NCBI GenBank assembly: GCA_001875345.1 | Contig: MIZA01000022.1 | Coordinates: 838-64,837, forward strand | Direction of reading: 5' to 3' | DNA length: 64,000 nt | Source of the DNA: Marine Group III euryarchaeote CG-Epi1 | GTDB lineage: Archaea; Thermoplasmatota; Poseidoniia; MGIII; CG-Epi1 | Shown here: piece by piece, positions 24,094 to 55,200 of the stretch | How positions within the stretch are numbered: the stretch's first letter is position 1 | How the letters are laid out: the number at the start of each line of letters is the position of its first letter | The notes under the pieces: model-generated | The model's input: the letters and a program-made list of their open reading frames with translations, nothing else | Told to the model about the DNA's origin: nothing | The model's database searches: none | Position numbers and translations under genes: made by a program

Positions 24094-25795
24094 AGAAGAG
24101 ATACCTAGAAACCCCGCACAGGCAATCATGCCTTGCTTATCTATGATATTTCTGTACCTACTATGGTACAACTGGAAATCTCCTGAAAGTGTTAGTGCTA
24201 CCCTCATGGGTGTTGGAACAATTGGAATTACTTGGCTTGTCTATATGGGAGCTTCTTACTCTGGTGAAGGATCTAAGCTACACGGATTAAAACCTATAAT
24301 TGGAAGAATGCCTACTGTGCAAAAACCAGAAGGACACGTTCATTTTAGAACAAAAATGACATGGACTTTGGCTATTCTTATTGTTTATTTTGCTATGACA
24401 AACGTAGCTTTGTATGGTCTCGGTGGAGAAACTATTGATCTGTTCAGTCAATATCGTGCAATTCTAGCGGGTGCAAGTGGAAGTTTGATGCACTTGGGTA
24501 TTGGGCCTATCGTTACAGGAAGCATTATCATGCAATTGTTCACCGGTGCAAAGATTATTAATTTAAATCTACAAGATCCACGTGATAAGGAGATATATCA
24601 AGGAACCCAAAAAGTATTGGTTATTGTAATGATTATAGTTGAGTCTGTACCTCAAGTATTTGGATTCTTGGAACCTAGTTCAGCTCTCGTTGCTGAAGTT
24701 GGCCTTAGCTGGGCCAGAATGACTATTATTACTCAATTAGCAATTGGTTCATATCTTGTATTCTTAATGGACGAAAGTGTGTCTAAATGGGGTATTGGAT
24801 CAGGTATTTCCCTGTTTATTGCTGCAGGAGTTTCTCAGGCTATATTTACCGGAACTTTGAATTGGGAACCAGCACCAGGAAGCGGTACTGAAACGCCTTC
24901 TGGAACTCTTCCTATGATTTTATGGTATCTTAAAAATTCTTCTACTTCAGATTTGAGTGGTGGTGGTTACGAAGCTATTTTGCTTGCCCCTCCTAATCCC
25001 TTAGTTGCCTTAATTGGAACTTTTATTGTATTTTTGATTGTGGTTTATGTAGAATCTTCAAGAATTGAATTACCTTTAGCTCATGGAAAAGTTAGAGGAG
25101 CAAGAGGTAGATATCCAATTAGATTAATCTACGCAAGTAACATTCCTGTGATTTTGATGGCTGCACTATTGGCAAACGTAAACATGTTTGCTCTTTTATT
25201 CTGGTCACATCCTAGTATGTCAAAATGGCCTATTTTGGGCCACAATTGGAGACTAGGGGCTTTTGATACTACTGATGGAAGTAATCCTGTACCTACAATG
25301 GGTCTAGCTTACTACGTTAATCGGCTAGCTGGTCTTCAAGACTGGTTCTTACCTTTAGTAAGTCCCGATAAATATGGTGCATACATGGGTGACCATGAAC
25401 CATGGCAGCTTGTTGCCCACATTGTCATTTACATGTCCATTATGGTCTTTGGATCTATTGTTTTTGCTAAGTTTTGGATTGAGACTACAAATATGGGACC
25501 TGAAGCTGTAGCTAAGCAAATTCAAGGTTCAGGTATGCAAATTCCAGGATTCCGAAGAGACCCAAGAATTGTTGAAAAAGTTTTGGAAAGATACATTCCT
25601 ACTGTTACCGTTTTCAGTGGTGCTGTTGTTGGATTTTTAGCTGCTGGAGCTGACATGATTGGTACCGTCGGACAGTCGTCAGGTACAGGGGTGCTACTTA
25701 CTGTCGGAATTATGATACGTATGTATGAACAAATTGGAAAAGAACAAATGATGGAAATGCATCCTGTTCTTCGAAGTTTCTTCGGCGAGGATTAA
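24086..25795 (+). CDS. secY: Preprotein translocase subunit SecY (start uncertain; possible ~60-aa N-terminal extension)
   Basis: HLGIGPIVTGSIIMQLFTGAKII plug/TM2 signature and 10 TM core. The canonical SecY N-terminus aligns from about LHGLKPIIGRMPTVQKP. The ORF begins 8 nt inside rpl15, and in-frame ATGs also occur in the 24.20-24.25 kb region. Confidence 0.9.
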   Translation: MAEEEIPRNPAQAIMPCLSMIFLYLLWYNWKSPESVSATLMGVGTIGITWLVYMGASYSGEGSKLHGLKPIIGRMPTVQKPEGHVHFRTKMTWTLAILIVYFAMTNVALYGLGGETIDLFSQYRAILAGASGSLMHLGIGPIVTGSIIMQLFTGAKIINLNLQDPRDKEIYQGTQKVLVIVMIIVESVPQVFGFLEPSSALVAEVGLSWARMTIITQLAIGSYLVFLMDESVSKWGIGSGISLFIAAGVSQAIFTGTLNWEPAPGSGTETPSGTLPMILWYLKNSSTSDLSGGGYEAILLAPPNPLVALIGTFIVFLIVVYVESSRIELPLAHGKVRGARGRYPIRLIYASNIPVILMAALLANVNMFALLFWSHPSMSKWPILGHNWRLGAFDTTDGSNPVPTMGLAYYVNRLAGLQDWFLPLVSPDKYGAYMGDHEPWQLVAHIVIYMSIMVFGSIVFAKFWIETTNMGPEAVAKQIQGSGMQIPGFRRDPRIVEKVLERYIPTVTVFSGAVVGFLAAGADMIGTVGQSSGTGVLLTVGIMIRMYEQIGKEQMMEMHPVLRSFFGED

Positions 25796-26409
25796 TGCCC
25801 ATTTACGGCGAATCCATTATCGAAGATGATTGTTTTATTGATTCAGATGCTTTAATTGGTTATCCTCACTCAAAAGAATTAGAGAAAGAATCTAAAGAAA
25901 TTGCAGGATGTGAGATCGGAGCCGGATCAATCATAAGGCCTGGGTCCGTATATTCTACCGCTAAATTAGGTAAAAAAACTAGAACTGGGCACAACTTTCT
26001 TGTTCGTGAAAATACTACAATAGGAGATGGATGCTTAATAGGAACTAATGTTGTTGTAGATAATAATTGTACCATTGGGAATTATTGTAGTTTTCAAACT
26101 GGAGCATACATTCCCACTGGAACTGTCATTGGAGATAGAGTATTTCTTGGTCCAAATGCATCTCTAACAAATGATAAAATGCCTTTAAGAACAGAATATC
26201 ATTGTGACCCTATTACTATTGAAGACGATGTTTCTGTTGGGTCTAATGCAACTATAATGCCTGGATTAACAATTGGAGAAGGTGCATTCATTGCTGGAGG
26301 AGCTGTTGTTACCAAAGACGTTCCTGCTTGGCATATGGCAAAAGGATGTCCTGCAGTTTTTAGTAAACTACCAGATAATTTAAAAAAACCTAATAGGTTG
26401 GGACCGTAG
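25795..26409 (+). CDS. Hexapeptide-repeat (left-handed beta-helix) acyltransferase
   Basis: 204 aa. Repeated [LIV]-G-x4 hexads (IGDGCLIGTNVVVDNNCTIGNYCSFQTGAYIPTGTVIGDRVFLGPNA...VGSNATIMPGLTIGEGAFIAGGAVV). TAATG overlap with secY. Confidence 0.8.
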   Translation: MPIYGESIIEDDCFIDSDALIGYPHSKELEKESKEIAGCEIGAGSIIRPGSVYSTAKLGKKTRTGHNFLVRENTTIGDGCLIGTNVVVDNNCTIGNYCSFQTGAYIPTGTVIGDRVFLGPNASLTNDKMPLRTEYHCDPITIEDDVSVGSNATIMPGLTIGEGAFIAGGAVVTKDVPAWHMAKGCPAVFSKLPDNLKKPNRLGP

Positions 26410-27606: not shown

Positions 27607-28164
27607 CTATTTCCAAAACCTTTCTAAAGTAAGTCTTTCAAAAAAGAACTTTTCTTCACGTATAATTTCCCTTTTCCAATTTACATTTAAATTTTTCATC
27701 TTACTTGAAATTATAAGATATATATTTCCGCCAGTCTTAAGATATTCTTCGGCTTTAGACAATAATTCGATTGTAAATTCTGAACCTGTAGGGCCTCCTT
27801 CTACTGCCAAGGCTAATTCTGGATCATTGTACTCTTCTGTTGGAGGTAAATAGGGAGAGTTACAAACTATGAAGTCAAATTTACGGCCTTTAACTTTTTC
27901 AAACATATCTCCTTCTAAAACTTCAATATTTACTTGATTTTGGTTTGCATTATATTTTGTAGCCTTTACGGCTTTGCGATTGATATCAACGGAAGTTACA
28001 GTGTTTCCTCTTTTAGCTAAATGTATAGAGATTATTCCTGAACCGCAGCCTATTTCTAACGCTGAGCCTAATTCTTCTGGAAGGTAATTACAGACCATCC
28101 AGGAATCTTCTGCAGGTTCATAAACTCCTTCAAAATTTTCTATTTTAATCTCTTCCATAATCAA
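27607..28164 (-). CDS. HemK/Mtq2-family SAM-dependent methyltransferase
   Basis: 185 aa. EIGCGSGIISI (motif I) and the NPPY-type motif as VCNSPYLPP. Confidence 0.75.
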   Translation of the reverse strand: MIMEEIKIENFEGVYEPAEDSWMVCNYLPEELGSALEIGCGSGIISIHLAKRGNTVTSVDINRKAVKATKYNANQNQVNIEVLEGDMFEKVKGRKFDFIVCNSPYLPPTEEYNDPELALAVEGGPTGSEFTIELLSKAEEYLKTGGNIYLIISSKMKNLNVNWKREIIREEKFFFERLTLERFWK

Positions 28165-28172
28165 CCATAAGA

Positions 28173-28188
28173 AAGGTTATATAACCTT
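28173..28188. promoter_or_regulatory. Perfect 16-bp palindrome AAGGTTATATAACCTT in a divergent promoter region
   Basis: Read directly from the sequence. It lies in the 45-bp gap between divergent genes 27607-28164(-) and 28210-28980(+), and contains a symmetric TTATATAA TATA-like core. Confidence 0.5.
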
Positions 28189-28209
28189 ATATTTAAACAT
28201 ATATAACTT

Positions 28210-28980
28210 ATGGCGTGGAAGAAGGGAAAAAAACCAGAACAATATCTGTTCACAATCACTGATGAATTCTCTGATAATTGGAAATCTTTCAAAGAAGAGG
28301 CCAAAGATAATAACCAAAATATTAGCGAACTATTAAGAAATACTGTAAGTTCAAAATTAAAAAATAATGCAGCTAAAAAAGCCTTAGTCCTTAGTCCCCA
28401 TACTGACGATGCAGAATTAGGTTGTGGAGGGACTATTGCCAAACTTATTGAAGAAGGCTGGAAAGTCCATGTAATCTATTTTAGTGCTGTAGCTGAAAGA
28501 TATCCTAATTTAGTGGAAGAAGCTGCAAATTCAGGCAAAATATTAGGAATTACGCATGAGGTTCTAGATTTTCATACTAGGTTTTTTCCAAGAGATAGAC
28601 AAGAAATTCTTCAAGCACTCTACGATCATTCTAGAAGTATAAATTATGATTTAGTTTTCACTCCCACTACTACCGATATTCACCAAGATCATGGAGTGGT
28701 AACAGCTGAAGCGAAAAGAGCTTTTAGGAATTGTACTTTACTTGGATATGAGCTGCCTTGGAATAACTTATCTGTTTCACTAAATTGCTTTATTCCGCTT
28801 GAAGAAAGACACATAAAGAAAAAAATATTAGCATTGGATTGCTATGATAGTCAGAAACACAACCCTTATTTTAGTGAGAAATTTTTTAGATCTGTAGTGA
28901 AAATGAGAGGTATACAATTATCAAGTCCTTTTGCTGAAGGATTTGAGACGATTAAAGTGAGGTTAGATCAACTGTTATGA
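28210..28980 (+). CDS. PIG-L/LmbE-family deacetylase with N-terminal ribbon-helix-helix-like extension
   Basis: LVLSPHTDDAELGCGGTIAKL (PIG-L signature) and later HQDH. The first ~50 aa (YLFTITDEFSDNWKSFKEEAKDNNQNISELLRNTVSSKL) fit the strand-helix-helix pattern of the CopG/Arc family. Confidence 0.8.
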   Translation: MAWKKGKKPEQYLFTITDEFSDNWKSFKEEAKDNNQNISELLRNTVSSKLKNNAAKKALVLSPHTDDAELGCGGTIAKLIEEGWKVHVIYFSAVAERYPNLVEEAANSGKILGITHEVLDFHTRFFPRDRQEILQALYDHSRSINYDLVFTPTTTDIHQDHGVVTAEAKRAFRNCTLLGYELPWNNLSVSLNCFIPLEERHIKKKILALDCYDSQKHNPYFSEKFFRSVVKMRGIQLSSPFAEGFETIKVRLDQLL

Positions 28981-30119
28981 CGAAAATTGCGATGGTTTTG
29001 GGTCATGATTTGTTAATTCCTAATGAAGATACTAGAGTTTATCGAGAAGCTTTAGCTCTAATTAAAGCTGGATACGAAGTAACTGTTTTTTGTTGGTCTA
29101 GAAGATTAGAGAAATATGATACAAAATGGGAAGTCGAGAGAGACGGGATTAAAGTCATTCGTATTTTTGAAGATTTGAAAGGAGGGTTCTTTTCCAAAGT
29201 TAAAAGTTTTAGAAAAGCACTAAAAAAGCTTGAGGAAAAAGTTACTGAGTATGAACCAGATCTTATTCATGCTCACGATTTGGAAGTTCTTGATGTGGCT
29301 GTAAATATTAAAAATAAAACTGGTACTAAGATTATCTTTGATTCTCATGAAGATTGGCCAATGATGGAAAGTGTTCAAAACTGGTTTATTGGAAAATATT
29401 ATGAAAGAAAACAGAAAAAATTAATTGGAAAAGTAGATGCAATGTTAACTGTTTCAGATGAACTGGCTCTTAGATTAGGTGGCGGTACTGTTTTGTATAA
29501 TTCTGAACTATTGGAGACTGTCAAAAAACCGGTTTTACATGATAGGTTCGGTTTGGATGGTATAGTTGCAGGCTATATTGGAGGGTTAAGAAAGCCTATT
29601 CTAGAAGAAATACTAGATGCTGCGTCTAAAGTTAATGCATTGAGTATTTTGATTGTTGGAGGGCCTCCTAAAGGACATTCAGGATATACGGACATGATTT
29701 CTGAGCTTGAAGAGTTAGCCTTAGAAAAAGGTGCTAATGCTAAGTTTACTGGACCTTTACCATATAGTATGATGAATGAATGCTACGCTGCATGTGATAT
29801 TCTGATGGTAGGGCATTATGTTGATGAAAGAATGAGAGGCTATGCTTTACCAAAGAAATTATTAGATTCCATGGCTTACAAAGTTCCTGTTATTGTAGGG
29901 CCTTATGAAGCTCGTCAAAAAATAGTTGAAAGATATGAATGTGGCCTTGTAACTGAAGATTGGACTGATGCCTTGACTACTCTAGCTAATGATAAAGAAC
30001 TTAGGAAAAAAATGGGCGAGAATGGCTATAAAGCATTTAAAATGAATTACTCATGGGAACTTCAAGAGAAAAAAATGCTCGAAGTATACGACGAATTATT
30101 GAAAGAGGAAGGACAATGA
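28977..30119 (+). CDS. Glycosyltransferase family 4 (GT-B fold)
   Basis: 380 aa. The N-terminal half has the typical IHAHD...FDSHE pattern. The C-terminal half has a GT1/GT4 nucleotide-sugar binding pattern (LPKKLLDSMAYKVPVIV...ECGLV). ATGA overlap with the deacetylase. Confidence 0.8.
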   Translation: MTKIAMVLGHDLLIPNEDTRVYREALALIKAGYEVTVFCWSRRLEKYDTKWEVERDGIKVIRIFEDLKGGFFSKVKSFRKALKKLEEKVTEYEPDLIHAHDLEVLDVAVNIKNKTGTKIIFDSHEDWPMMESVQNWFIGKYYERKQKKLIGKVDAMLTVSDELALRLGGGTVLYNSELLETVKKPVLHDRFGLDGIVAGYIGGLRKPILEEILDAASKVNALSILIVGGPPKGHSGYTDMISELEELALEKGANAKFTGPLPYSMMNECYAACDILMVGHYVDERMRGYALPKKLLDSMAYKVPVIVGPYEARQKIVERYECGLVTEDWTDALTTLANDKELRKKMGENGYKAFKMNYSWELQEKKMLEVYDELLKEEGQ

Positions 30120-31126
30120 GAGTTCTGTTAACAGGGGTGGGATGTCCCGGTGCACATGCCTTAATTTCGAACTTAAAATTGCAAGATGAAAGTATCTTCA
30201 TATTAGGCACAAATGCAAATGAGCAAGCTATCGGTAGGTGGCTATGTGACGATTTTGCAGTTGTTCCTTGGGCTTACGAAGAAAATTATATTGATTCTAT
30301 AATTGATTTGGTCAGAAAAAACAATATTGATATTGTATTTCCACAGACTTCATGGGAGATGTTTCATCTTTCGAAAGCCTCCAAAGAAATTGAAAAATAC
30401 TGTAGACTGCTGGCTTCAAAACATGAACTAGTAGCCATTTGTGAAAATAAGTATCTAATGTACAAACACTTCGAAGGGAAAATTGATGTCCCTCAATTTT
30501 ACTTGGTTAAAACAATGGCTGAACTAGTTAAAGCTGCTGAAAAATTAGGATATCCTGAGAAGGATGTTGTATTCAAACCTCCAGAAGGAAAAGGTGCTCG
30601 AGGGGTGAGAGTTCTAACCGAGAAATCTGATAGATATGATCTTTTGTTTAATGGAAGGCCTTTTGCAAAATATATCTCGATTGATGAACTAAAGTCTACG
30701 GTTGGCAAAAACGAAATACCTGAACTAATGGTAATGGAATATTTAGAGGGCGTGGAGTTAAAAATTGATCCTGTTCTGAAGAATGGAGAAATGCTAACCT
30801 GCTCTGTTAAAAATAGATTAAACTTTGCATCTGGTTTAGCAATGGGGTTTGAAATGATTGATGATAATGAAGCTATTAACTATGCTAGAAGTTTATTGAA
30901 ACATCTTCCAATGGATTATTGTATTGACATCTCAACTAGAGGAGGAGTTCTCATGGAAATTAATCCACGAGTTTCTACATACATTTATAGTAAAAATTAT
31001 TGTGCCCCTTATCTCGCTTTGAAACTAGCAATGGAAGAGATGTCTGCCGATGAAGTTAAAGATTACCAAACGAAACTTCCAATTGGCAAAAAAATGTTTA
31101 GGTACTACGGCCAGATAGACTATTAG
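30116..31126 (+). CDS. ATP-grasp domain ligase
   Basis: 336 aa from the ATG that overlaps the GT4 TGA (ATGA). MRVLLTGVG pre-ATP-grasp start, KPPEGKGARGVRV, MEYLEGVE, MEINPRVS motifs. Confidence 0.8.
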   Translation: MRVLLTGVGCPGAHALISNLKLQDESIFILGTNANEQAIGRWLCDDFAVVPWAYEENYIDSIIDLVRKNNIDIVFPQTSWEMFHLSKASKEIEKYCRLLASKHELVAICENKYLMYKHFEGKIDVPQFYLVKTMAELVKAAEKLGYPEKDVVFKPPEGKGARGVRVLTEKSDRYDLLFNGRPFAKYISIDELKSTVGKNEIPELMVMEYLEGVELKIDPVLKNGEMLTCSVKNRLNFASGLAMGFEMIDDNEAINYARSLLKHLPMDYCIDISTRGGVLMEINPRVSTYIYSKNYCAPYLALKLAMEEMSADEVKDYQTKLPIGKKMFRYYGQIDY

Positions 31127-31141
31127 TCGGTAACTATATTT

Positions 31142-31267
31142 CTAACAGCTTGCGCAAGTATACATCAAGCTATTATCTGTTAGAACAAGTTCCGTAGTTG
31201 CTTCTTTCTGCATGCACTTTTCGCAAAGTACAGTCAAGCTATTTGTAGTAGTTAGTGACTCAGACAT
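31142..31267 (-). CDS. Candidate 41-aa zinc-ribbon protein (absent from the ORF track)
   Basis: MSESLTTTNSLTVLCEKCMQKEATTELVLTDNSLMYTCASC*, giving CxxC-19-CxxC. A TTTATATA box sits 22 nt upstream of the ATG on the same strand, consistent with a leaderless mRNA. Confidence 0.5.
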   Translation of the reverse strand: MSESLTTTNSLTVLCEKCMQKEATTELVLTDNSLMYTCASC

Positions 31268-31288
31268 AATAAATTTTTATTTTAGGCA

Positions 31289-31296
31289 TATATAAA
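31289..31296 (-). promoter_or_regulatory. TATA box (TTTATATA on the minus strand) for the zinc-ribbon ORF
   Basis: Consensus-like archaeal TATA. Its spacing to the ATG at 31267 places the predicted transcription start at or next to the start codon. Confidence 0.5.
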
Positions 31297-31376
31297 CATT
31301 AAATTCTAGTGGGTAAATAAATTATCAACATTTTACGATTAGTGCACTACATTACTGCAATGAAAATATAAAATCC

Positions 31377-31463
31377 TGGCGCCAGGGGAGAGATTTGAAC
31401 TCCCGAGGGATTGCTCCCAGTGGCTTTCGAGGCCACCGCAATACCGGACTATGCGACCCTGGC
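31377..31463 (-). tRNA. tRNA-Ser (anticodon CGA), CCA encoded
   Basis: Manual cloverleaf: acceptor GCCAGGG/CCCTGGC, anticodon stem GTGGC/GCCAC with loop CTCGAAA, long variable arm TGGGAGCAATCCCTC, T arm GGGAG-TTCAAAT-CTCTC, discriminator G plus CCA. 87 nt. Confidence 0.9.
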
Positions 31464-31534: not shown

Positions 31535-31741
31535 ATGGAATGGCAAGTAACTATTGATGACAAAATAGAAACTATTGTTTTACCCGATGGAAGTACTGCT
31601 AATGATCTTGTCAATCATTTAAATTTACATCCAGATGGTGTTTTGGTTGTCACTGATGAAGAGAAAATGAAGCCTATTCCCTTAGTCATAGCCTTACCTA
31701 AAAAACCGATTAGAATTATTCTAGTTGCTTCTGGCGGATAA
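31535..31741 (+). CDS. ThiS/MoaD-family ubiquitin-like protein (SAMP-like) with C-terminal Gly-Gly
   Basis: 68 aa ending ...ILVASGG*. The size and the V-NG/D-like middle (LHPDGVLVVTDEE) fit beta-grasp sulfur-carrier or modifier proteins. Confidence 0.65.
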   Translation: MEWQVTIDDKIETIVLPDGSTANDLVNHLNLHPDGVLVVTDEEKMKPIPLVIALPKKPIRIILVASGG

Positions 31742-31795: not shown

Positions 31796-34700
31796 ATGGC
31801 AAAGAAATCTGTGAAAAAAGAAACGGCGTCGAAAAAAAGTACGCCTAAGAAATCTCCTGCCAAAAAAAGCCCTACTGCGAAAAAAACTCAAACAAAAAAA
31901 GCGGTTGCAAAGAAAACTTCTACTAAACAAACTAAATTACAAGACAATCAAAAGAAAGGTAAATTAACAGTAAGTCAAAGAGAAAGAGACGAAATTGATG
32001 CAGTTATGGATACTTTGTGGGCTTTTGTAGGGGCTCTAAAAAATTCATGGAAAAATACGAGAGCTATTTTGTTAGCTGGTATTTTCATTGGACTAATCGG
32101 CGTAACTTTCTCTGGCTATGGTCAAGAGTTGGTTGGTGTTGAACAGTCTGGAATTTGGTACGCAATTACTGAAAATCCTGAAGATTTAGAAGCTTCTTTT
32201 GATCCTGTATTCAATAATCGACAATATCTAGAATATTCTTCTGGGGATGAAATTAGAATAGAAGGAAAATTAACTGATATTAGATACTATGGAGATATTG
32301 AAGATGGGTTATATCCTATCCCTCCCAGTGGTTTAGATCCTGCGGTTGCACCAGGGGACAGCTTCAAAATTCTACAGCCTGGGACTACTGACTCTTTATT
32401 TCCAGTACTCTCTGAAAATAATAGTGAAATGAATATTAATTTTGCCAGTGGATTGGAATTTCAAAGAGTGCATTTCAATAATACTGACTTAACCGCAGCA
32501 GTTTTCACCAACGTAAAATTTACCGATGTTTTATTTTCAGAATATTCCTTTACAGATTCTTTCTTTATAGATTGTAGTTTTGAAAGAGTTACTTTTGCAG
32601 ATGTCGATTTTAGTAAGTCTGTGATGTCGAATGTGACTTTTGATGCTGTACTATTCAACAATGTCACTATGGATTCAAATAGAATTGAAAAGAGCGTATT
32701 GGATACCTTTTTGGTTAGAAGCTCTACATTTAATTCTGTTACATTTGATAAGACTGAAATTACAGGAACTAAGTGGTCACAGTCTGCTTTAAACGACGGA
32801 ATTTTCCAAAGAAGCTCAATGGATGTAGTCATCTTTAGAGATCTGGAAGTCAATGATTTTTATCTGATAGACTCAAAAATCAATTATAATTTTGATGTTC
32901 CTCTTACTTCAACTTTTGATCATACGTTTATTGAACTTGGAGAAGCTACTGTAGTCGTAGGAGGAAATGTCGAAGATGAATACGCTGCCGGAGCTCATCT
33001 TTATTTTGGAAATGCTAAAGTAAAATTGGGTGGATTAGCTGCCGGAACTGCTCCAACATACGGCGGTTGGGAGCCTGGAAGTGTAACTGGTCAAGGTTTT
33101 CAAAAATTAAATTCAGGTAACTTATCTGTAAATTTAAATTATGAATACATTTATTCTGATTCTAAGGATATTGACATTACTTTCTGGTGGAATATTGCCT
33201 TTGATTGTATTGCGGTATTGGGTCTTGGAATTCTGATATATGCTATAGGTGGACCTAGCGCAATGCTTGGACTTTTCAAGTTTCTTTCACCATTCATAAT
33301 GACTGGCGCTTTCTTCGTTGTAATGTTTTTGAGCATGGGACAAAGAGAATTCTTAATTCTTTCTCAACTAATGCTTGTTTATTTTGTTCCACCGTTTGGT
33401 AAAGGTACTGTGGTTCCGCTTGGAATTGCAGGCGGAGTTGATCCTTGGGCTATCGCAATTTGTACTGCATTTGTCGATATTGCAGTAGGTGTTTTCCTAA
33501 CTTGGAATTTTGACTTGGCAAAGAAAATACCCTTCATTGGTAGCGGAATTAATCGAATTCAGATTAAAGGAAAAGCTATGTTGAAAGATTTACCATGGTT
33601 GGAAAGAGCTTCTTTTGTAGGTATTGTTGTATTTGTTATGTTCCCATTCCAAGGTTCAGGTGCAGTTGGAGGAACCATCTTAGGAAGAGCTATTGGTTTA
33701 TCACCAAATAGGAATTTGAGTGCTGTTGCTATTGGAGCTATAAGTGGGTCACTAATTCTATCTGCTTCTGTAGTTTATGGATTAGGTGTCTTGGCTATCT
33801 TAGCTCCTCTACAAATTGCAGTAACTGTAATGTTTATTGGACTGTGTCTTGTTATCTATTATTTGTATCAACATTGGGAAGAGATCAAGTTGGAAGATGT
33901 TTCACAAACGATTGGAGGCGTTTCACAAACTCTTGGCCTTCACAAGGAAGGACTCATCGGAGCACCAATCAATGCTAGCGTTGGGGCGCTTGGAACTGCC
34001 GGTGGAACTGTTCTAAAGGTTACTGGAGATACAAGTCGTACTGTTCTTGGAGCTGTTGGACAAACTGGTAAAAACATAACTAAAACCACCGGTGATTTCA
34101 TAGGTTCTTTAGCTGGATCTTTTGCTGATGATAAATCTGACTATGCAGATAGTACTAAACCCACTGAGTTAGACTCAGGAGTATTGGTTTCCATGGCAGA
34201 ACAAAAAACAAAGAATAGAGTTGTAGTTACTGGCGGTGCAGGATTTATTGGATCTCACCTAGTAGATCGCTTAGTAAAAAGAGATGAAGAAGTTGTAGTT
34301 TTAGATAATTTTTCTTCTGGCCAATTAGAATTCCTCGAAGAATCAATTGAAAATATTACCTTGATTGATATTGACCTACTTAATGAGGACTTTGCAGGAT
34401 ATTTAGAGGGAGCGAAAATCGTATACCATTTAGCTGCTAACCCTGAAGTTCAACTAGGAATTACTAAGCCTGAAGTCATGCAGGAACAAAATGTAGACGT
34501 TACAAAGCGCGTTTTAGAAGCTATGAAATTAGCTGGATGTGAAAATATTGTCTTTACTTCTACTTCAACAGTTTATGGAGATGCAGAGAAGATTCCAACA
34601 CCAGAAACTGCAGAACTAAAACCAATTTCTGCGTATGGAACTAGTAAACTAGATGCTGAAAAATTAATCGAAAAGTATTGTAAAGAGAATAACTTCCGAG

Positions 34701-35161
34701 GAGTTTCTTACCGATTTGCAAATTGTGTAGGTCCTCGTAGTAACCATGGAGTTACCTTTGACTTTGTGAATAAATTAAGGAAAGATAACAATAATTTAGA
34801 AATTTTAGGAGATGGAAAGCAAAAGAAATCTTATTTCCATGTTGAAGATTGTATTTCAGGTATGCTAAATATGGCTCCAGGTGAACTCTGTGAAAAAGGG
34901 GAAATGGCTGCCCTTAACGTAGGCTCGAAAGATGCAATTGATGTTATTACTTTAGCTGATCAAGTTTGTAAAGCAATGAAATTAGATGATGTAGAATATT
35001 CCTTTACTGGTGGAGTTGATGGAGGAAGAGGCTGGAAAGGAGATGTTAAATTTATGCGATTGGATATTAAGGCATTGATGAAACATGGATGGACTCCTCA
35101 ATATACCAGTCGAAGAGCCATTAAGGAAACTGCAACCTGGCTTCACAAAAACTCTGAATAA
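31796..35161 (+). CDS. Multidomain membrane protein: Lys-rich tail, pentapeptide-repeat domain, polytopic membrane domain, C-terminal NAD-dependent epimerase/dehydratase
   Basis: Single 1121-aa ORF. aa 1-55 are KKSxxKK repeats, followed by a TM segment. aa 222-361 are 28 consecutive pentapeptide repeats. aa ~465-700 form a multi-TM domain resembling the 'small multidrug export' family (PLGIAGGVDPW..., FPFQGSGAVGGTILGRAIGL). A Gly-rich linker follows. aa 800-1121 are an SDR epimerase (VVVTGGAGFIGSHLVDRL, YGTSKLDAE). Confidence 0.7.
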   Translation: MAKKSVKKETASKKSTPKKSPAKKSPTAKKTQTKKAVAKKTSTKQTKLQDNQKKGKLTVSQRERDEIDAVMDTLWAFVGALKNSWKNTRAILLAGIFIGLIGVTFSGYGQELVGVEQSGIWYAITENPEDLEASFDPVFNNRQYLEYSSGDEIRIEGKLTDIRYYGDIEDGLYPIPPSGLDPAVAPGDSFKILQPGTTDSLFPVLSENNSEMNINFASGLEFQRVHFNNTDLTAAVFTNVKFTDVLFSEYSFTDSFFIDCSFERVTFADVDFSKSVMSNVTFDAVLFNNVTMDSNRIEKSVLDTFLVRSSTFNSVTFDKTEITGTKWSQSALNDGIFQRSSMDVVIFRDLEVNDFYLIDSKINYNFDVPLTSTFDHTFIELGEATVVVGGNVEDEYAAGAHLYFGNAKVKLGGLAAGTAPTYGGWEPGSVTGQGFQKLNSGNLSVNLNYEYIYSDSKDIDITFWWNIAFDCIAVLGLGILIYAIGGPSAMLGLFKFLSPFIMTGAFFVVMFLSMGQREFLILSQLMLVYFVPPFGKGTVVPLGIAGGVDPWAIAICTAFVDIAVGVFLTWNFDLAKKIPFIGSGINRIQIKGKAMLKDLPWLERASFVGIVVFVMFPFQGSGAVGGTILGRAIGLSPNRNLSAVAIGAISGSLILSASVVYGLGVLAILAPLQIAVTVMFIGLCLVIYYLYQHWEEIKLEDVSQTIGGVSQTLGLHKEGLIGAPINASVGALGTAGGTVLKVTGDTSRTVLGAVGQTGKNITKTTGDFIGSLAGSFADDKSDYADSTKPTELDSGVLVSMAEQKTKNRVVVTGGAGFIGSHLVDRLVKRDEEVVVLDNFSSGQLEFLEESIENITLIDIDLLNEDFAGYLEGAKIVYHLAANPEVQLGITKPEVMQEQNVDVTKRVLEAMKLAGCENIVFTSTSTVYGDAEKIPTPETAELKPISAYGTSKLDAEKLIEKYCKENNFRGVSYRFANCVGPRSNHGVTFDFVNKLRKDNNNLEILGDGKQKKSYFHVEDCISGMLNMAPGELCEKGEMAALNVGSKDAIDVITLADQVCKAMKLDDVEYSFTGGVDGGRGWKGDVKFMRLDIKALMKHGWTPQYTSRRAIKETATWLHKNSE

Positions 35162-45749: not shown

Positions 45750-47207
45750 TTATTGATTTCTAAACGGTAGAAAAGATTTTGCTAATTTAATCTCGTTTTC
45801 ACCAATTAATTTTAGCTTGTAGGAAAGTGCTAAAAACATAATTGCAAACGAAATTATGGATAAAACTAAAGTTAAAGGATTGGATAATTCAAATGCTGAC
45901 AACAGAATAACAGGTAAAACAGATAATGCTGAAACTGATGCTATTTTCCACATCTCTTTTACTGGAAATGTTTCAAAGAAATTAGATTCTATAGTTGCTA
46001 GAGATCTATTCATAACCAGTATTGTCGATATCCAGGTTACCAATACAGTAGAAAATGGAATTCCTAACAATCGATTATCTCCTTCTAAAGTTGTCAATAA
46101 CCAATAACTCAAAATTATATTAACAATAGACATCGAAAGCGCTAACTTTAACAAAAATTTAGTTTGCCCACTTGCCATCAAAATCCAACCTAAATTAAGA
46201 GAATATGTCGGTACCAAAATCAGATAAATCATGAATATTGGAATCGAATCTCTGTAAGTTTCTGTAAACATTGTTAATATCAATGGTTCCGCAATAAAAA
46301 TTAGTAAAATCGTTGCAGGTAAAAATACGAACGCCAATTTACTGATACTATTTTGATACAGTTCTTTGATTTCAGATAAATTTCCATCCTTGTGTGCCTT
46401 TGACATCATTGGCGTAACAACTTGAGACGCCGACTGAGTTATCCATCCGAAAATAGGCGCCCAGAGTGAACCTAAATAGTAAACCGCAAACACTGAACTT
46501 GAGAAAAATAAACCTACCAAGTACTTGTCAACGTTCACGTTTATGACGTAAACCATTGCCGTCAAACCTACTGGTATTCCGTAAGCCAATTGTTCCTTAA
46601 GATAAGAGGTTCCTGAAATTTCCTTTGTTAAATATGTTGAATATACGTGAAACAAGACCATTACAACTTTTAGAGAGGCTGCAAAAATAATTCCATGTAA
46701 TATTCCGAGAGTTGTTGGATTTAGCCACGCTGCAGTAGGAAGGATTGCGATATCTATTACTGTAAAAAATATCATTGACCACATTGCCGTAGAAGTTTTT
46801 CCCTCTAGAATTAACAAATTCTGAATAGGCATTACAAATATCATTAATGAGGTGTAAATTCCTAATAAAATTAGATACTCTTTCAAATGATGGTTATCAA
46901 TGATTTGGGACCCTAGCCAAAACAAACTCATTACAATTAAAGCTGAAAAAAGTAAAATCATCCACGTTTGTCTGACTAATAGAGGGTGCTCACCCATCTC
47001 TTTTCTTGGATAATAATAGAGAAGTGATTGTGGCATTCCAAACAGTAATATTGCTTGAACTATCGTGTAAATCATCACTAATTGCTGATAGGATCCGTAA
47101 TCTTCTTTCAATAAAATACGTGTCAAAAAGAATGGAATTAAGAGACTTAAAAGAAAAGAAGATGCTCTTCCGTAGATGAGCATTATGATTTTTCGCGACG
47201 GTTCCAT
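45750..47207 (-). CDS. Polysaccharide/oligosaccharide flippase (Wzx/MOP superfamily)
   Basis: 485 aa, about 12-14 TM segments. The N-terminal pattern (GRASSFLLSLLIPFFLTRILLKEDYGSYQQ) is typical of polysaccharide biosynthesis (PST) proteins. Confidence 0.7.
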   Translation of the reverse strand: MEPSRKIIMLIYGRASSFLLSLLIPFFLTRILLKEDYGSYQQLVMIYTIVQAILLFGMPQSLLYYYPRKEMGEHPLLVRQTWMILLFSALIVMSLFWLGSQIIDNHHLKEYLILLGIYTSLMIFVMPIQNLLILEGKTSTAMWSMIFFTVIDIAILPTAAWLNPTTLGILHGIIFAASLKVVMVLFHVYSTYLTKEISGTSYLKEQLAYGIPVGLTAMVYVINVNVDKYLVGLFFSSSVFAVYYLGSLWAPIFGWITQSASQVVTPMMSKAHKDGNLSEIKELYQNSISKLAFVFLPATILLIFIAEPLILTMFTETYRDSIPIFMIYLILVPTYSLNLGWILMASGQTKFLLKLALSMSIVNIILSYWLLTTLEGDNRLLGIPFSTVLVTWISTILVMNRSLATIESNFFETFPVKEMWKIASVSALSVLPVILLSAFELSNPLTLVLSIISFAIMFLALSYKLKLIGENEIKLAKSFLPFRNQ

Positions 47208-47266
47208 CTATTTTTTGAGAAAGGAGTAGGTTATAAACTCACATGTTATGGATTTAATATTCATTT

Positions 47267-48340
47267 ATGGGTTCTAAACTGCGCATCGCTGTAGTCGCTA
47301 ATGCAAATAGCATTCATACAATCAGGTGGGTAAAATGGCTACGCAAAAAGAAACACGAAGTGACTGTTTTTTCATTAAATGAAGGGGAAGATTGCGTTTA
47401 TTTTGGACCTGAACCGGCTCTTGACCGAAGTTTGATTTTTAATCTTGGAAAAAATGTTAGAAAAACAACGAGTGAGTTACAGGCAAAAATTGATGAGTTT
47501 AAACCTGATCTTGTCCACGGCTTTTTTCTAGTCAATCATGGAATGTATGCCTCGAGAATCAAAGGCTATCCCAAGGTGGTAACTGCGTTAGGATCAGATG
47601 TATTAATAGCTCCAAACGAATCTAAATTAATGTCGTGGATTGTTAAAAAGACCGTGAAAGATTCTGATTTAATTATTTCCGTAGCTGACCACCTTAATAG
47701 CGTTGTATCGCCTTGGAAAAAGAATCATGTAGAAAGTATTAGCTCTCCTCTAGGTATAGATGTTAAGAAATTTAAGCCTTTGAAAAAAGAAAATCTTATC
47801 GTTTTTAATCGAGGATTCAAGAAAGTTTACTCTCCGCTAACACTTGTTGAGGCAATCTCTGAAATTTCAGATGAGATTAAGGATTACAAGGTAATTATGT
47901 GTGGGGAAGGACCATTGCTCGAAGCATGTAAAAATTATGTAAATAAACAATCCTTAAATGATTTAATTTCGTTCTCAGGATTTATTCCAAATGAGGACCT
48001 TGTTGACCTATTAGGTCGAGCAAAAATATTGGTTTCACCTGCATTAAGCGATGGAACGCCTGTTTCAATTCTTGAAGGACTTGCTTCTGGATGTATTATT
48101 CTTTCAAGTCAAATTCCTGCGAATAAATTTTGGACTGTGGAAAATAAGACAGGTTTAAGTTTTGATGCAAAAAATAGTTTGCAACTATCGGATTGTATTC
48201 TTAAAGCTGTAAATGACAAAAGTATTGAGCAGAATGCACTGATTCATGGTCCAGAGATGGTTGAAAAATATGCTGACTGGAATACTGAAATGTTACGGAT
48301 TGAAGAAAAATACTATAATTTAGTTAAAATTGCAAAATAA
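47267..48340 (+). CDS. Glycosyltransferase family 4/1 (GT-B)
   Basis: 357 aa. The N-terminus KLRIAVVANANSIHTIRWVKWL is typical of GT4. The C-terminal half has SPALSDGTPVSILEGLASGCIIL. Confidence 0.75.
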   Translation: MGSKLRIAVVANANSIHTIRWVKWLRKKKHEVTVFSLNEGEDCVYFGPEPALDRSLIFNLGKNVRKTTSELQAKIDEFKPDLVHGFFLVNHGMYASRIKGYPKVVTALGSDVLIAPNESKLMSWIVKKTVKDSDLIISVADHLNSVVSPWKKNHVESISSPLGIDVKKFKPLKKENLIVFNRGFKKVYSPLTLVEAISEISDEIKDYKVIMCGEGPLLEACKNYVNKQSLNDLISFSGFIPNEDLVDLLGRAKILVSPALSDGTPVSILEGLASGCIILSSQIPANKFWTVENKTGLSFDAKNSLQLSDCILKAVNDKSIEQNALIHGPEMVEKYADWNTEMLRIEEKYYNLVKIAK

Positions 48341-53066: not shown

Positions 53067-53879
53067 ATGGCTAAAAAAGACGTAACAAAACCAATCAGCC
53101 TAGACCCCCGCGGAGGACGTCCTAGAGAAAAATGTGTGACGTACATCGAGGGAATTGACCGTATTTTAAACGGTGGACTTCCAATTGGAAATATTGTATT
53201 ATTGGCCGGAACTGTGGGTTCAGGAAAAACTACTTTGGCTATGGAATATTTGATTAACGGAGCTAAAAATGGAGAAACATGCTGTTACATCTCGGTCACT
53301 GAGCCTTCGTCAAAGATGTTATCAAACTTGCAGACCTATGGATTCTTCGACGATGCTTTGGTTAAAGATGGTCGATTAAATATTTTTGATTTAACAGTTA
53401 TTAACGATCGATTAGGTGTAGAAAGGCTTGATGGTACTTATTCATCAAAAGATATGGAAGCTTTACTAGGTGCATTCGAAGATATCGTAGATGAACTTGG
53501 TGTTACAAGACTAGTCATTGATTCTATTACTGCAATTTGTTATCAATTACCTGACAAGGGAAGTATTCGTAATTTCATATTTAGATTAAGTCAGTTTTTG
53601 AGTACTTTCGGATGTACTACTATGCTAATTTCAGAAACGGTGGTTGATTCCAATACTCAAACATATTCTATTTTTGGAGTGGAAGAAGCTGTTGCAGATG
53701 GTGTAATTCTTATGGGTAACATCATACGCCAAGGTGATTTGTTGAGAAGTTTACAAGTTGTAAAAATGCGAGGGACTAAACACTCTCGTGCCAGACATCT
53801 TATTGAGTTAACTCCAGTTGGCTTAGCTGTTGTTCCTCTTCTCAAGTGGGGTCAAGACGGAGGACAGGCGTTTACATGA
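53067..53879 (+). CDS. KaiC/RadA-like single-domain ATPase (intact Walker A)
   Basis: 270 aa. IEGIDRILNGGLPIGNIVLLAGTVGSGKTTLAMEYL, Walker B-like TRLVIDS, TMLISE, and C-terminal QVVKMRGTKHS, all typical of KaiC-family domains. Confidence 0.8.
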   Translation: MAKKDVTKPISLDPRGGRPREKCVTYIEGIDRILNGGLPIGNIVLLAGTVGSGKTTLAMEYLINGAKNGETCCYISVTEPSSKMLSNLQTYGFFDDALVKDGRLNIFDLTVINDRLGVERLDGTYSSKDMEALLGAFEDIVDELGVTRLVIDSITAICYQLPDKGSIRNFIFRLSQFLSTFGCTTMLISETVVDSNTQTYSIFGVEEAVADGVILMGNIIRQGDLLRSLQVVKMRGTKHSRARHLIELTPVGLAVVPLLKWGQDGGQAFT

Positions 53880-54433
53880 GCATCAAAGATACTGCTCAAT
53901 CTATTATCAAAAGTATCAACGGTGGGGACACATTAACTAGTATTAGTTTAAGCGCTGAAAATTTTCATGAAGACACGGTAAAGTTAGTTTCAGTATTGGT
54001 TGGTAAAAAATTAGGAGGAATCTACGTTACTACTTCTAGACCTTCCTCACATATTAGAGCTGAACTAGAAGAAGCTGGAGCTGATTTATCTGACTTATAT
54101 TTTGTTGATCTTGTATCTATGACTGTCGGTGGAAACACCTCTGATGCTCGAACTTTATTCATTGAATCCCCAACTATGTTAGAATCTATTCTTTTGAATA
54201 TCACTCTTTTAGAAAGGCGTCTAAAATCAAAAAGGCGTTTTGTAATGTTTGACTCTGTAAATGGACTCAGTATTTATTCCGAACCAAAAGTTTTGAGAGA
54301 ATTTATTAACGTTTTAGGAAATTCTATGAGGATTAAAGAAATTTACAGTATGTTAATGACTGTTAAAGAACAAACTGACGAGGAATTATCGTCTGCATTA
54401 AATTTATTATCTGATAAAATGATAGGAGAATAA
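53876..54433 (+). CDS. KaiC-like pseudo-ATPase lacking a P-loop
   Basis: 185 aa from the ATG that overlaps the upstream TGA (ATGA). It aligns with its neighbour (GGIYVTTSRPSSHIRAELEEAG vs CCYISVTEPSSKMLSNLQTYG; RRFVMFDSVNGL vs TRLVIDSITAI) but has no GxxxxGK[ST]. Confidence 0.6.
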   Translation: MSIKDTAQSIIKSINGGDTLTSISLSAENFHEDTVKLVSVLVGKKLGGIYVTTSRPSSHIRAELEEAGADLSDLYFVDLVSMTVGGNTSDARTLFIESPTMLESILLNITLLERRLKSKRRFVMFDSVNGLSIYSEPKVLREFINVLGNSMRIKEIYSMLMTVKEQTDEELSSALNLLSDKMIGE

Positions 54434-54435
54434 GT

Positions 54436-55200
54436 ATGGCTGAAAAAATAGTTTCAACTGGAATCGAGCGTTTAGACGAGGCATTAATCAATGGAGAAGG
54501 TGTCGTATTGGGTAGTTCTATCTTGATAGAAGGTAGTTCAGGTTCTGGAAAAGAGTTATTATCGAAACAATTTGCTTCGGCAGGCGTTGGATCTGAAACT
54601 GTTGTTTATTTTTCAACTGATGAAACATCAGATGAGCTTATCGATGTCTTTGAACAATACAGGTGGGCTACTGACTTACGTATTGTCAATGTAGGGACCC
54701 AATACTTTGAAAAGGTTCTATCTCGTGAACTACAAGCTTCACGTTTCAAACAAGAAGGTCTTTCTGTCTCTGAACTTAGAAATTTAGGATCTTATGGTTC
54801 AACCTCTGATCAAATTAATTTCGTTGCAGATATGACCTATGAAATTTCAAAATTAAAATCACCTTTCCGTGTTGTTATTGACTCTTTAGATTTCTTTTTA
54901 CAATACTACAACCCTCTCGAGGTATTGTCTGCTGTAAGAACAATTAAGGAATATGCACAGGCGAATGGTGGAACTGTAATGTATACCATTTCTGAAGGTG
55001 CCCATGAACATAAAATTCACAGCCAGCTTGAAGCTATTTGTGACTTAGTTATTCAACTAGAAGTCGGAAGAATGGCTGCAGAGTTTGAAAACCGTTTAAT
55101 TATCAAAAAGATACGAAATCATCCTGAGAAAGCTGCTGTTATGATTTATGCTGTAACAGATAGTGGACTAACCCCAGAAATGATTACACGTGTTGCTTGA
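54436..55200 (+). CDS. KaiC/RecA-like protein with degenerate Walker A (GSSGSGKE)
   Basis: 254 aa. TGIERLDEALINGEGVVLGSSILIEGSSGSGKELLSKQF, FRVVIDSLD, and C-terminal IIKKIRNHP in place of the KMRG motif. Starts 2 nt after the previous gene. Confidence 0.7.
   Translation: MAEKIVSTGIERLDEALINGEGVVLGSSILIEGSSGSGKELLSKQFASAGVGSETVVYFSTDETSDELIDVFEQYRWATDLRIVNVGTQYFEKVLSRELQASRFKQEGLSVSELRNLGSYGSTSDQINFVADMTYEISKLKSPFRVVIDSLDFFLQYYNPLEVLSAVRTIKEYAQANGGTVMYTISEGAHEHKIHSQLEAICDLVIQLEVGRMAAEFENRLIIKKIRNHPEKAAVMIYAVTDSGLTPEMITRVA

Follow-up and report, generated by a model that had tools for sequence, protein, structure and literature searches.

The subject of this analysis is an operon of three genes in a 64,000-nt stretch of DNA from a Marine Group III (MGIII, Poseidoniia) archaeon; the whole of this stretch is called the window. 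The three open reading frames (ORFs) lie on the same strand and encode a deacetylase, a glycosyltransferase and a carboxylate-amine ligase. MGIII archaea are uncultured, and to our knowledge their envelope chemistry and small-molecule cofactors are wholly undescribed. The three genes, and the slot in which the ligase gene sits, are as follows.

28210..28980, + strand: PIG-L/LmbE-family metal-dependent de-N-acetylase, 256 amino acids (aa); Pfam PIG-L, HxDD+H motif
28977..30119, + strand: GT4-family (GT-B fold) glycosyltransferase, 380 aa, soluble, of an MGIII-specific lineage; Pfam
30116..31126, + strand: ATP-grasp carboxylate-amine ligase, here called type A, 336 aa, of the PRK12767/ATPgrasp_Ter/PylC-like_N type; Pfam and NCBIfam
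30107..31373, no strand assigned: cassette slot, 1.27 kb in the window (ATP-grasp A and a 250-nt spacer) and 3.04 kb in the relative locus L079

Both junctions of the operon are ATGA start/stop overlaps (TTATGACG at 28977 and CAATGAGA at 30116). An earlier reading made from the letters of the DNA (the sequence-only reading) had reported the genes as joined in this way, and its coordinates and overlaps were exactly right; the three enzyme classes it had named all scored above the Pfam gathering cutoffs. Overlaps (ATGA or GTGA) were present at both junctions across the MGIII type-A loci L007-L019 (L-numbers denote relative loci from the ligase scan described below), and their recurrence across these loci indicates that the coupling has been kept and is not due to chance. 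A longer ligase ORF starting from an ATG at 30053 is possible; the start at 30116 was preferred since nearly all close homologues are exactly 336 aa in length. None of the three proteins contains a hydrophobic segment and all are soluble.

Family assignments and catalytic motifs

The deacetylase matched Pfam PIG-L over aa 59-171 with 66.2 bits against a gathering cutoff of 28.2, and its catalytic core spans aa 58-256. The LmbE-like metal-binding/general-base motif, HxD1D2 + H (PMC4101496), is present as H64-T-D66-D67 and H161 (HQDH), aligns with H10/D13/H111 of TT1542, and was invariant in 56/56 aligned members of the PIG-L subfamily. The motif spacer is 94 residues, compared with 97-148 in characterised members (PMC4101496). 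Every characterised LmbE-like enzyme hydrolyses a substrate containing N-acetylglucosamine (GlcNAc) and leaves a free amine (PMC4101496), and by this family-wide rule the window PIG-L would act on a GlcNAc-containing substrate. In sequence the protein is no closer to any one of TT1542, BshB and the archaeal chitobiose deacetylases than to the others: the BshB structure 6p2t (E=1.7e-6) was matched no more strongly than were TT1542 and the chitobiose deacetylases, and diacetylchitobiose deacetylases were among the PDB matches at E about 1e-5 to 1e-6. Residues 1-57 (28210-28380) form an MGIII-specific N-terminal extension, which is missing in L001 and in all non-MGIII homologues (about 200 aa) and gave no significant match in a Pfam search. 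A ribbon-helix-helix-like reading of this extension, made by eye, was unsupported.

The second protein matched Glyco_transf_4 (50.6 bits vs 28.5) and Glycos_transf_1 (44.9 vs 26.4), reached a maximum 19-residue hydropathy of 1.25, and is presumed to be a GlcNAc transferase. The sequence-only reading had likened this enzyme and the deacetylase to MshA/BshA and MshB/BshB of mycothiol and bacillithiol biosynthesis. In comparison with hidden Markov models from NCBIfam, the GT4 reached 38.8 bits with the MshA model TIGR03449 (cutoff 462.5), over its C-terminal domain only, and the PIG-L reached 53.6 bits with the BshB1 model TIGR04001 (cutoff 182.5), while no BshA model gave a match at E<=0.01. Orthology to MshA, BshA or BshB was rejected, the scores being far under the cutoffs. 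The GpgS model likewise gave only 17.4 bits with the GT4 (cutoff 480).

Alignment of the E-x7-E region (MshA 'NESFGLVAMEAQA', window GT4 'DERMRGYALPKKLLDSMA') showed that the GT4 does not have the canonical motif: E284 is kept, six residues are extra, and the second Glu is replaced by an invariant D297. The variant motif does not by itself show that the enzyme is inactive. The nearest solved structures by profile were 6kih, PimB', MshA and GlgM, with coverage mostly of the donor-binding half. Within MGIII, orthologues were 74-97% identical and occurred with either ligase type described below, and the 120 GT4 matches listed in the homology search were all MGIII orthologues. The predicted structure was poor (predicted local distance difference test, pLDDT, 64), the alignment being shallow and made of orthologues at least 74% identical. 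An apparent absence of the GT4 gene from L010 and L021 proved to be an artefact of ORF filtering, as the gene was present by tblastn in both.

The ligase was matched by ATPgrasp_Ter (47.9 bits vs 29.1), PylC-like_N (35.3 vs 27) and ATP-grasp_3 (28.3 vs 23.2). Its AlphaFold model had a pLDDT of 90.2, and a Foldseek search with this model returned, at probability 1.0, 2pn1 first and then the L-amino-acid ligase RizA, PurK, PurT, biotin carboxylases and PylC. Residues K154, E208, E281, N283 and R285, of a kind typical for ATP-grasp nucleotide/Mg sites, were invariant in 49 ligase sequences. Neither Pfam nor NCBIfam gave any match to MshC (Cys-tRNA-synthetase-like) or BshC, families in which the sequence-only reading had not placed the ligase. 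The closest family in both sequence and structure was that of the PRK12767 'carbamoyl-phosphate-synthase-like' ATP-grasps, represented by 2pn1 (profile E 8.5e-18, Foldseek E 3.6e-18); with PRK12767.1-1 (NCBIfam) the ligase reached 90.7 bits, under the equivalog cutoff of 218. This family match provides a fold and not a chemistry. Structural modelling of the ligase, as envisaged in the sequence-only reading, thus predicted the ATP-grasp fold with confidence but named no substrate: assignment through solved structures failed because the closest, 2pn1, is uncharacterised and the other matches are generic ATP-grasp enzymes. With the PIG-L metal motif and the ATP-grasp residues invariant and the ligase fold confidently modelled, these two enzymes look active.

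Ligases on the best-matching contigs of MGIII metagenome-assembled genomes were 84-90% identical to that of the window, and in a distance tree type A formed a Poseidoniia-specific clade. A sister clade of the window ligase (L004, L005, L024 and L025; 41-46% identity) has no PIG-L or GT4 gene nearby and is always followed by RtcA (RNA 3'-phosphate cyclase) and preceded by the proteasome-activating nucleotidase.

The PIG-L/ligase pair and the exchangeable ligase cassette

A scan of one genome per species yielded 80 loci encoding relatives of the ligase. ORFs were called in these loci and then searched with profiles of the three window proteins; the ORF caller was crude and failed in five high-GC loci. 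Of 75 loci, 47 had a PIG-L gene and 49 a GT4 gene no more than three genes away from the ligase; by our own count from the context tags, PIG-L lies near the ligase in 26 of 51 non-MGIII loci. The archaeal loci with the pair belong to Asgard archaea (Promethearchaeota, Heimdallarchaeota), Bathyarchaeia, Hadarchaeota and Thermoplasmatales, and the bacterial ones to Planctomycetia, Verrucomicrobia, Bacteroidota, Marinimicrobia, Fidelibacterota, many Thermoleophilia and others. The PIG-L proteins linked to the ligase form one tight subfamily of about 200 aa, 39-55% identical to the window PIG-L across phyla, which exceeds the 33-41% of the ligases; in a Bathyarchaeote the two genes overlap. The GT4s that adjoin the pair outside MGIII are unrelated to that of the window (at most 28% identical, the best being from a Hadarchaeote). 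Because PIG-L is conserved beside the ligase across phyla while the GT4s are unrelated, the ancient co-inherited unit is PIG-L and the ATP-grasp ligase, joined in each lineage by a glycosyltransferase of its own. Conservation of the whole trio, which the sequence-only reading had named for testing, is thus not supported outside MGIII. The apparent PIG-L 'fusions' of 570-590 aa in Thermoleophilia were ORF-calling artefacts in high-GC DNA. Locus L042 and proteins P0264 and P0360 are labelled Chloroflexota or Marinimicrobia yet have MGIII synteny (EMC3, MTQ2, PIG-L, GT4) and are probably mis-binned. Searches of full-text literature found no paper mentioning ATP-grasp together with PIG-L or LmbE, and nothing on AglU with threonine.

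Within MGIII the ligase gene itself is exchangeable. When the window was compared by blastn with L079, a close relative carrying a second ligase type (type B), homology stopped at 30106, about 10 nt ahead of the GT4 stop codon, and resumed at 31374, at the start of a tRNA-Ser gene. In seven MGIII loci the same site holds PIG-L, GT4, a 2-hydroxyacid dehydrogenase, an ATP-grasp ligase and, on the opposite strand, an enzyme dependent on pyridoxal phosphate (PLP). Compared with the window, PIG-L of these cassette-B loci is 79-93% and GT4 75-84% identical, and the ligase about 35%. In the ligase distance tree type B nests within the broad PIG-L-linked family. On trees built from PIG-L or from the flanking genes, A and B loci are intermingled and ligase type has a patchy distribution, and exchange has therefore happened more than once. 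Such swapping of cassettes among near relatives would be typical of the diversification of surface structures.

The additional genes of cassette B bear on what the ligase may use. The dehydrogenase is a SerA-like phosphoglycerate dehydrogenase without an ACT domain. The PLP enzyme is of the CysK/CBS-family beta-replacement type and gave comparable scores, all below cutoff, with models of cysteine synthase, cystathionine beta-synthase, cysteate synthase (CapA) and SbnA. Together these genes suggest that a beta-substituted alanine (cysteine or cysteate) is supplied specifically to ligase B, which makes an amino acid a plausible candidate for the ligated acid. Cassette A, in the window, carries no supply genes, and its ligase presumably draws on an acid or amino acid that is common in the cell.

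Outside MGIII the pair occurs in two kinds of gene context. In Thermoleophilia and other Actinomycetota the neighbouring genes encode Wzy, Wzz, an initiating sugar transferase (Bac_transf), DegT, several GT4s and more PRK12767-type ATP-grasps, which by gene content is a surface-polysaccharide set; AsnB-type amidotransferases were also among the bacterial neighbours. Archaeal pair loci contain GT2 and GT4 genes, WecB and WecC (UDP-ManNAc dehydrogenase). The second context is one of sulfonate metabolism. In the neighbourhood of ligase relatives, Promethearchaeota have genes for cysteate synthase (519 bits against a cutoff of 325), for a fused sulfopyruvate decarboxylase and for a reductase of 3'-phosphoadenosine 5'-phosphosulfate (PAPS); Bathyarchaeota have those for the two sulfopyruvate decarboxylase subunits, both above cutoff; and Heimdall/Promethearchaeota have those for ComA and an XcbC-like lyase, both just under cutoff. 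ATP-binding cassette (ABC) importers of the SsuA family were found in at least eight loci from six phyla. At a distance of at most six genes from the ligase, a sulfonate-type gene occurred in 18 of 59 non-type-A loci and in none of 19 type-A loci, and all 18 fall in the ligase clade that includes type B. At charged positions (336-aa numbering) type A differs from the sulfonate-linked ligases, with A238 against Arg, K216 against Thr, D271 against Asn and R275 against Ile, which is consistent with the use of a different acid. No sulfonate-supply gene was present among the 36 annotated window ORFs, about 25 others of at least 120 aa (mostly in the ribosomal cluster, 12-24 kb) having been left unannotated. 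A literature search on ATP-grasp with cysteate, sulfopyruvate decarboxylase and taurine listed no paper tying the ligase to sulfonates.

Some Asgard and Bathyarchaeal relatives of the ligase lie in apparent operons with sulfonate enzymes of the coenzyme M (CoM) type, namely cysteate synthase, sulfopyruvate decarboxylase, ComA, XcbC-like lyase and PAPS reductase (L026/L038, ~4.9-11 kb; L034/L061, ~8.7-14.2 kb; L006, 4.5-9.7 kb). These operons may represent an undescribed sulfonate-conjugate or CoM-related pathway.

Proposed pathway and alternative explanations

We regard it as an even call that the operon builds an N-acylated, probably aminoacylated, glucosaminide whose likeliest fate is a cell-envelope glycoconjugate. 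The scheme that follows is inferred as to its donor sugar and acceptor, its step order and ligation polarity, the acyl group that is attached and the place where the product ends up. The GT4 would move GlcNAc from UDP-GlcNAc onto an acceptor, PIG-L would strip the N-acetyl group to bare the C2 amine, and the ATP-grasp enzyme would activate a carboxylic acid as an acyl phosphate and couple it to that amine. The pair would then be a module for replacing acetyl by another acyl group, to which each lineage adds its own glycosyltransferase. In MGIII the ligase step would itself be modular, served by cassette A alone or by cassette B with its own acid supply, and the envelope product could be a glycan precursor or a glycolipid head group. 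Functional coupling of the pair is expected from the fact that LmbE-like enzymes leave a free amine and a carboxylate-amine ligase needs one; the tight co-inheritance of the two is most simply explained if one makes the substrate of the other. An envelope destination is favoured because of the glycan-cluster contexts of the homologues and the antigen-like exchange of the cassette, and is more likely than a soluble thiol. The sequence-only reading had preferred a soluble thiol or compatible solute and had named amino-acid decoration of an envelope sugar as its alternative; that alternative is now the better supported of the two (Wzy/Wzz/glycosyltransferase contexts, WecB/WecC, cassette exchange).

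Several observations weigh against this proposal. The operon has a single glycosyltransferase; a flippase, polymerase or oligosaccharyltransferase is not found next to it, and 14.6 kb separate it from the nearest Wzx-like gene. All three proteins are soluble; soluble or peripheral GT4s that work on lipids are common. The operon is by the ribosomal/SecY cluster, which is a housekeeping neighbourhood and not a glycosylation island, and a compact, soluble, single-glycosyltransferase operon at such a locus fits a soluble metabolite equally well. With PIG-L conserved and the glycosyltransferases variable, the pair could act on a universal precursor before glycosyl transfer, in another order of steps, and contexts with ComDE and aminotransferases would suit taurine (an amine) as the partner in some relatives, with the opposite polarity of ligation. 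The PIG-L subfamily, the ligase family and the nearest structure, 2pn1, are all uncharacterised, and the locus counts are phylogenetically non-independent and built on a crude ORF caller.

A more specific form of the proposal is put forward tentatively, as one we think has a modest chance of being correct. Here the PIG-L/ATP-grasp module would swap the N-acetyl group of glucosamine for another acid, which in a large clade would be sulfonated and cysteate-derived, and MGIII would switch the acid by means of the cassettes beside the tRNA gene. This clade would comprise the Asgard, Bathyarchaeia, Hadarchaeota and Thermoplasmatales ligases, MGIII cassette B and several bacterial phyla, with adjacent genes (cysteate synthase, ComA, sulfopyruvate decarboxylase, SsuA-type transporters) to make or import the acid. 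The resulting glucosaminides, sulfonated or aminoacylated, would form a new class and would serve as charged envelope glycoconjugates or as a Cys/cysteate-GlcN cofactor.

Several known systems share parts of the proposed logic. In teicoplanin and A40926 biosynthesis and similar tailoring of GlcNAc the same three steps are found, with GlcNAc installed, removal of its N-acetyl group by an LmbE-like enzyme (PMC4101496) and N-re-acylation; those systems differ in using acyl-CoA-dependent transferases on a secondary-metabolite scaffold, whereas the window has an ATP-grasp enzyme expected to use a free acid in a core archaeal operon. The PIG-A/PIG-L enzymes of the glycosylphosphatidylinositol (GPI) anchor and Pseudomonas gpgSDF (GlcN-phosphatidylglycerol) combine the glycosyltransferase and the deacetylase of a small operon to make a glucosaminyl lipid head group (PMC12713373). 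These systems lack a ligase step, and the window operon lacks a flippase gene. Mycothiol (MshA/MshB/MshC) and bacillithiol (BshA/BshB/BshC) biosynthesis use the same first two classes, a retaining GT4 and a PIG-L/LmbE deacetylase, and the same logic, in which GlcNAc is a masked glucosamine whose amine is later acylated by an ATP-dependent ligase. They differ in that the window proteins are non-orthologous, the ligase is an ATP-grasp enzyme and not the Cys-tRNA-synthetase-like MshC or BshC, nothing points to cysteine as the acid or to inositol phosphate or malate as the acceptor, and homologues of the window pair sit in glycan clusters. Of the thiol-like pathway that had been read from the sequence, the chemistry thus finds inferential support in the conserved pair and the amino-acid genes of cassette B, and a specific kinship to Msh or Bsh enzymes does not. 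The operon follows the logic of GlcNAc as masked glucosamine yet belongs to none of these pathways.

It is unlikely, in our judgement, that the product is a soluble small molecule, a counterpart of mycothiol or bacillithiol made with an ATP-grasp ligase: a cytoplasmic aminoacyl-glucosaminide such as a Cys-GlcN-X thiol or else an anionic compatible solute. The compact operon with its one glycosyltransferase, soluble proteins and lack of adjacent export or polymerisation genes would suit such a molecule, as would a housekeeping locus conserved throughout MGIII. The profile relatives of the GT4 include enzymes with small-molecule acceptors (6kih, MshA, GlgM), but these matches cover mainly the donor-binding half, and the scores were far under the MshA and BshB1 equivalog cutoffs with no BshA match. 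The CysK-family enzyme of cassette B could supply cysteine; it scored comparably, however, with the cysteate-synthase and SbnA models. Cassettes A and B could be non-orthologous routes to one product, yet it would be surprising for close relatives to replace the ligase of a core redox cofactor by a 35%-identical paralogue with other charged residues, and homologues of the pair are found in polysaccharide and multi-glycosyltransferase clusters.

Less probable again is that the pair works at the level of the nucleotide sugar (or of a universal lipid-linked precursor), converting UDP-GlcNAc to UDP-GlcN and then to UDP-GlcN-acyl, with the GT4 transferring the finished sugar. A PIG-L conserved beside unrelated glycosyltransferases would, on this explanation, see the same substrate everywhere, and PIG-L is first in the gene order. 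A PIG-L that recognises mainly the GlcNAc moiety could, however, stay conserved despite varied aglycones, and the characterised LmbE-like enzymes all act on GlcNAc glycosides, with no nucleotide-sugar substrate named in the review (PMC4101496).

We also doubt, and rank lower than the preceding explanation, that the ATP-grasp enzyme works in the opposite polarity, activating the carboxylate of a uronic or other acid and amidating it with an amino acid or taurine, with PIG-L acting on a separate residue. WecB and WecC, which make UDP-ManNAcA, adjoin some relatives, and the sulfopyruvate decarboxylase, aminotransferases and SsuA/TauA-type importers beside some relatives are consistent with a supply of taurine. 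The window operon, however, encodes no uronic-acid-forming enzyme, cassette B lacks a decarboxylase and provides an amino acid whose carboxylate is free, and the tight co-inheritance of PIG-L and ligase would be left without a reason. ATP-grasp amidation of glucuronic acid is known in capsule synthesis (PMC11800379): the C-terminal amidoligase of Campylobacter jejuni Cj1438, whose gene lies with those of glycosyltransferases, creates an amide on a building block of a glycan. It is a TupA-like ATP-grasp of another family, which couples the sugar's own carboxylate to an amine and has no PIG-L partner. Very improbable, finally, is a catabolic or salvage role in which PIG-L would be a chitobiose/GlcNAc-oligomer deacetylase as in chitin degradation by Thermococcales, with unrelated neighbours: diacetylchitobiose deacetylases were among its PDB matches, but it is equidistant from TT1542 and BshB, start/stop overlaps tie it to the glycosyltransferase and ligase, and the operon has no glucosaminidase, kinase or sugar transporter.

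The interest of the system lies in a widespread uncharacterised enzyme pair, an unusually clean cassette exchange and the expressible size of the operon. As the operon is conserved across MGIII and small enough for heterologous expression, its product is directly testable, and the chemistry of the PIG-L/ATP-grasp pair, once assigned, would annotate thousands of genes. The clean exchange of cassettes and the recurring link to sulfonate genes suggest an unrecognised route to diversify or charge glycoconjugates. If the product were instead a soluble thiol, it would be the first mycothiol-like thiol in archaea.

Flanking genes and other features of the window

The operon is bounded by the following features.

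27607-28164, - strand: MTQ2/HemK2-like methyltransferase, divergent, left neighbour of the operon
28165..28209, + strand: A/T-rich divergent intergenic region of 45 nt, presumed from its sequence to be the operon promoter
31377..31463, - strand: tRNA-Ser (CGA), by ARAGORN, right boundary of the operon and of the exchangeable cassette

TTTAAA/TATATAA-like elements lie about 10-25 nt ahead of the PIG-L ATG, and a spacer of 250 nt separates the ligase gene from tRNA-Ser. The neighbourhood is the archaeal ribosomal-protein/SecY/adenylate kinase/EMC3 cluster, and the operon is kept at this housekeeping locus throughout MGIII. No flippase, polymerase, chain-length regulator, initiating transferase or oligosaccharyltransferase gene was found in the operon or its immediate flanks. 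The arrangement is altered by insertions in L001 (1138-4742), a relative with 60% identity: an AbiEii/AbiEi toxin-antitoxin pair separates EMC3 from the methyltransferase gene, and an opposite-strand Methyltransf_24 gene, placed between PIG-L and GT4, breaks the translational coupling.

A gene at 25795-26409 (+), some 2 kb upstream and flanked by SecY and adenylate kinase, encodes an acetyltransferase with a left-handed beta-helix, of the type of the NeuD/PglB/VioB sugar N-acetyltransferases; its score of 89 bits falls short of the cutoff. The gene keeps its syntenic position in all MGIII loci. The spacer between ligase and tRNA-Ser contains a 41-aa ORF (31142-31267, -) that resembles a zinc ribbon in having two CxxC pairs; its conservation in L009 and L010 is 51-53%. 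Beyond the tRNA gene, a 68-aa ORF (31535-31741, +) ends in ...VASGG*, a C-terminus like that of ubiquitin-like proteins (SAMP/ThiS/MoaD-type); it is 85-96% conserved in L007, L009 and L079 and had no Pfam match.

The sequence-only reading had drawn attention to an epimerase domain 3 kb downstream. This short-chain dehydrogenase/reductase (SDR) domain is real and occupies aa 806-1120 of a 1121-aa ORF (31796-35161, +); it forms the C-terminal end of a fused membrane protein whose gene belongs to a different transcription unit, past the opposite-strand tRNA-Ser. The fusion consists of a Lys-rich N-terminus, pentapeptide repeats, an Sm_multidrug_ex membrane domain and the GalE-like SDR epimerase/dehydratase, and is conserved in the closest MGIII relatives only; aIF5B sits at this position in other MGIII clades. 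A functional tie between the operon and the epimerase was ruled out, as the latter is a separate unit beyond the tRNA gene with no synteny in other MGIII clades.

At 45750-48340, 14.6 kb from the operon, a Wzx/MurJ-type flippase gene (-) is divergent from a second GT4 gene (+), and the region between the operon and these genes encodes secreted proteins (YHYH/PGF-CTERM, BNR-repeat, subtilase and beta-propeller). Two KaiC-family ATPase genes lie at 53067-53879 and 54436-55200 (+), with an unannotated 195-aa ORF (53846-54433) between them and genes for an alpha/beta hydrolase and an M14 carboxypeptidase downstream.

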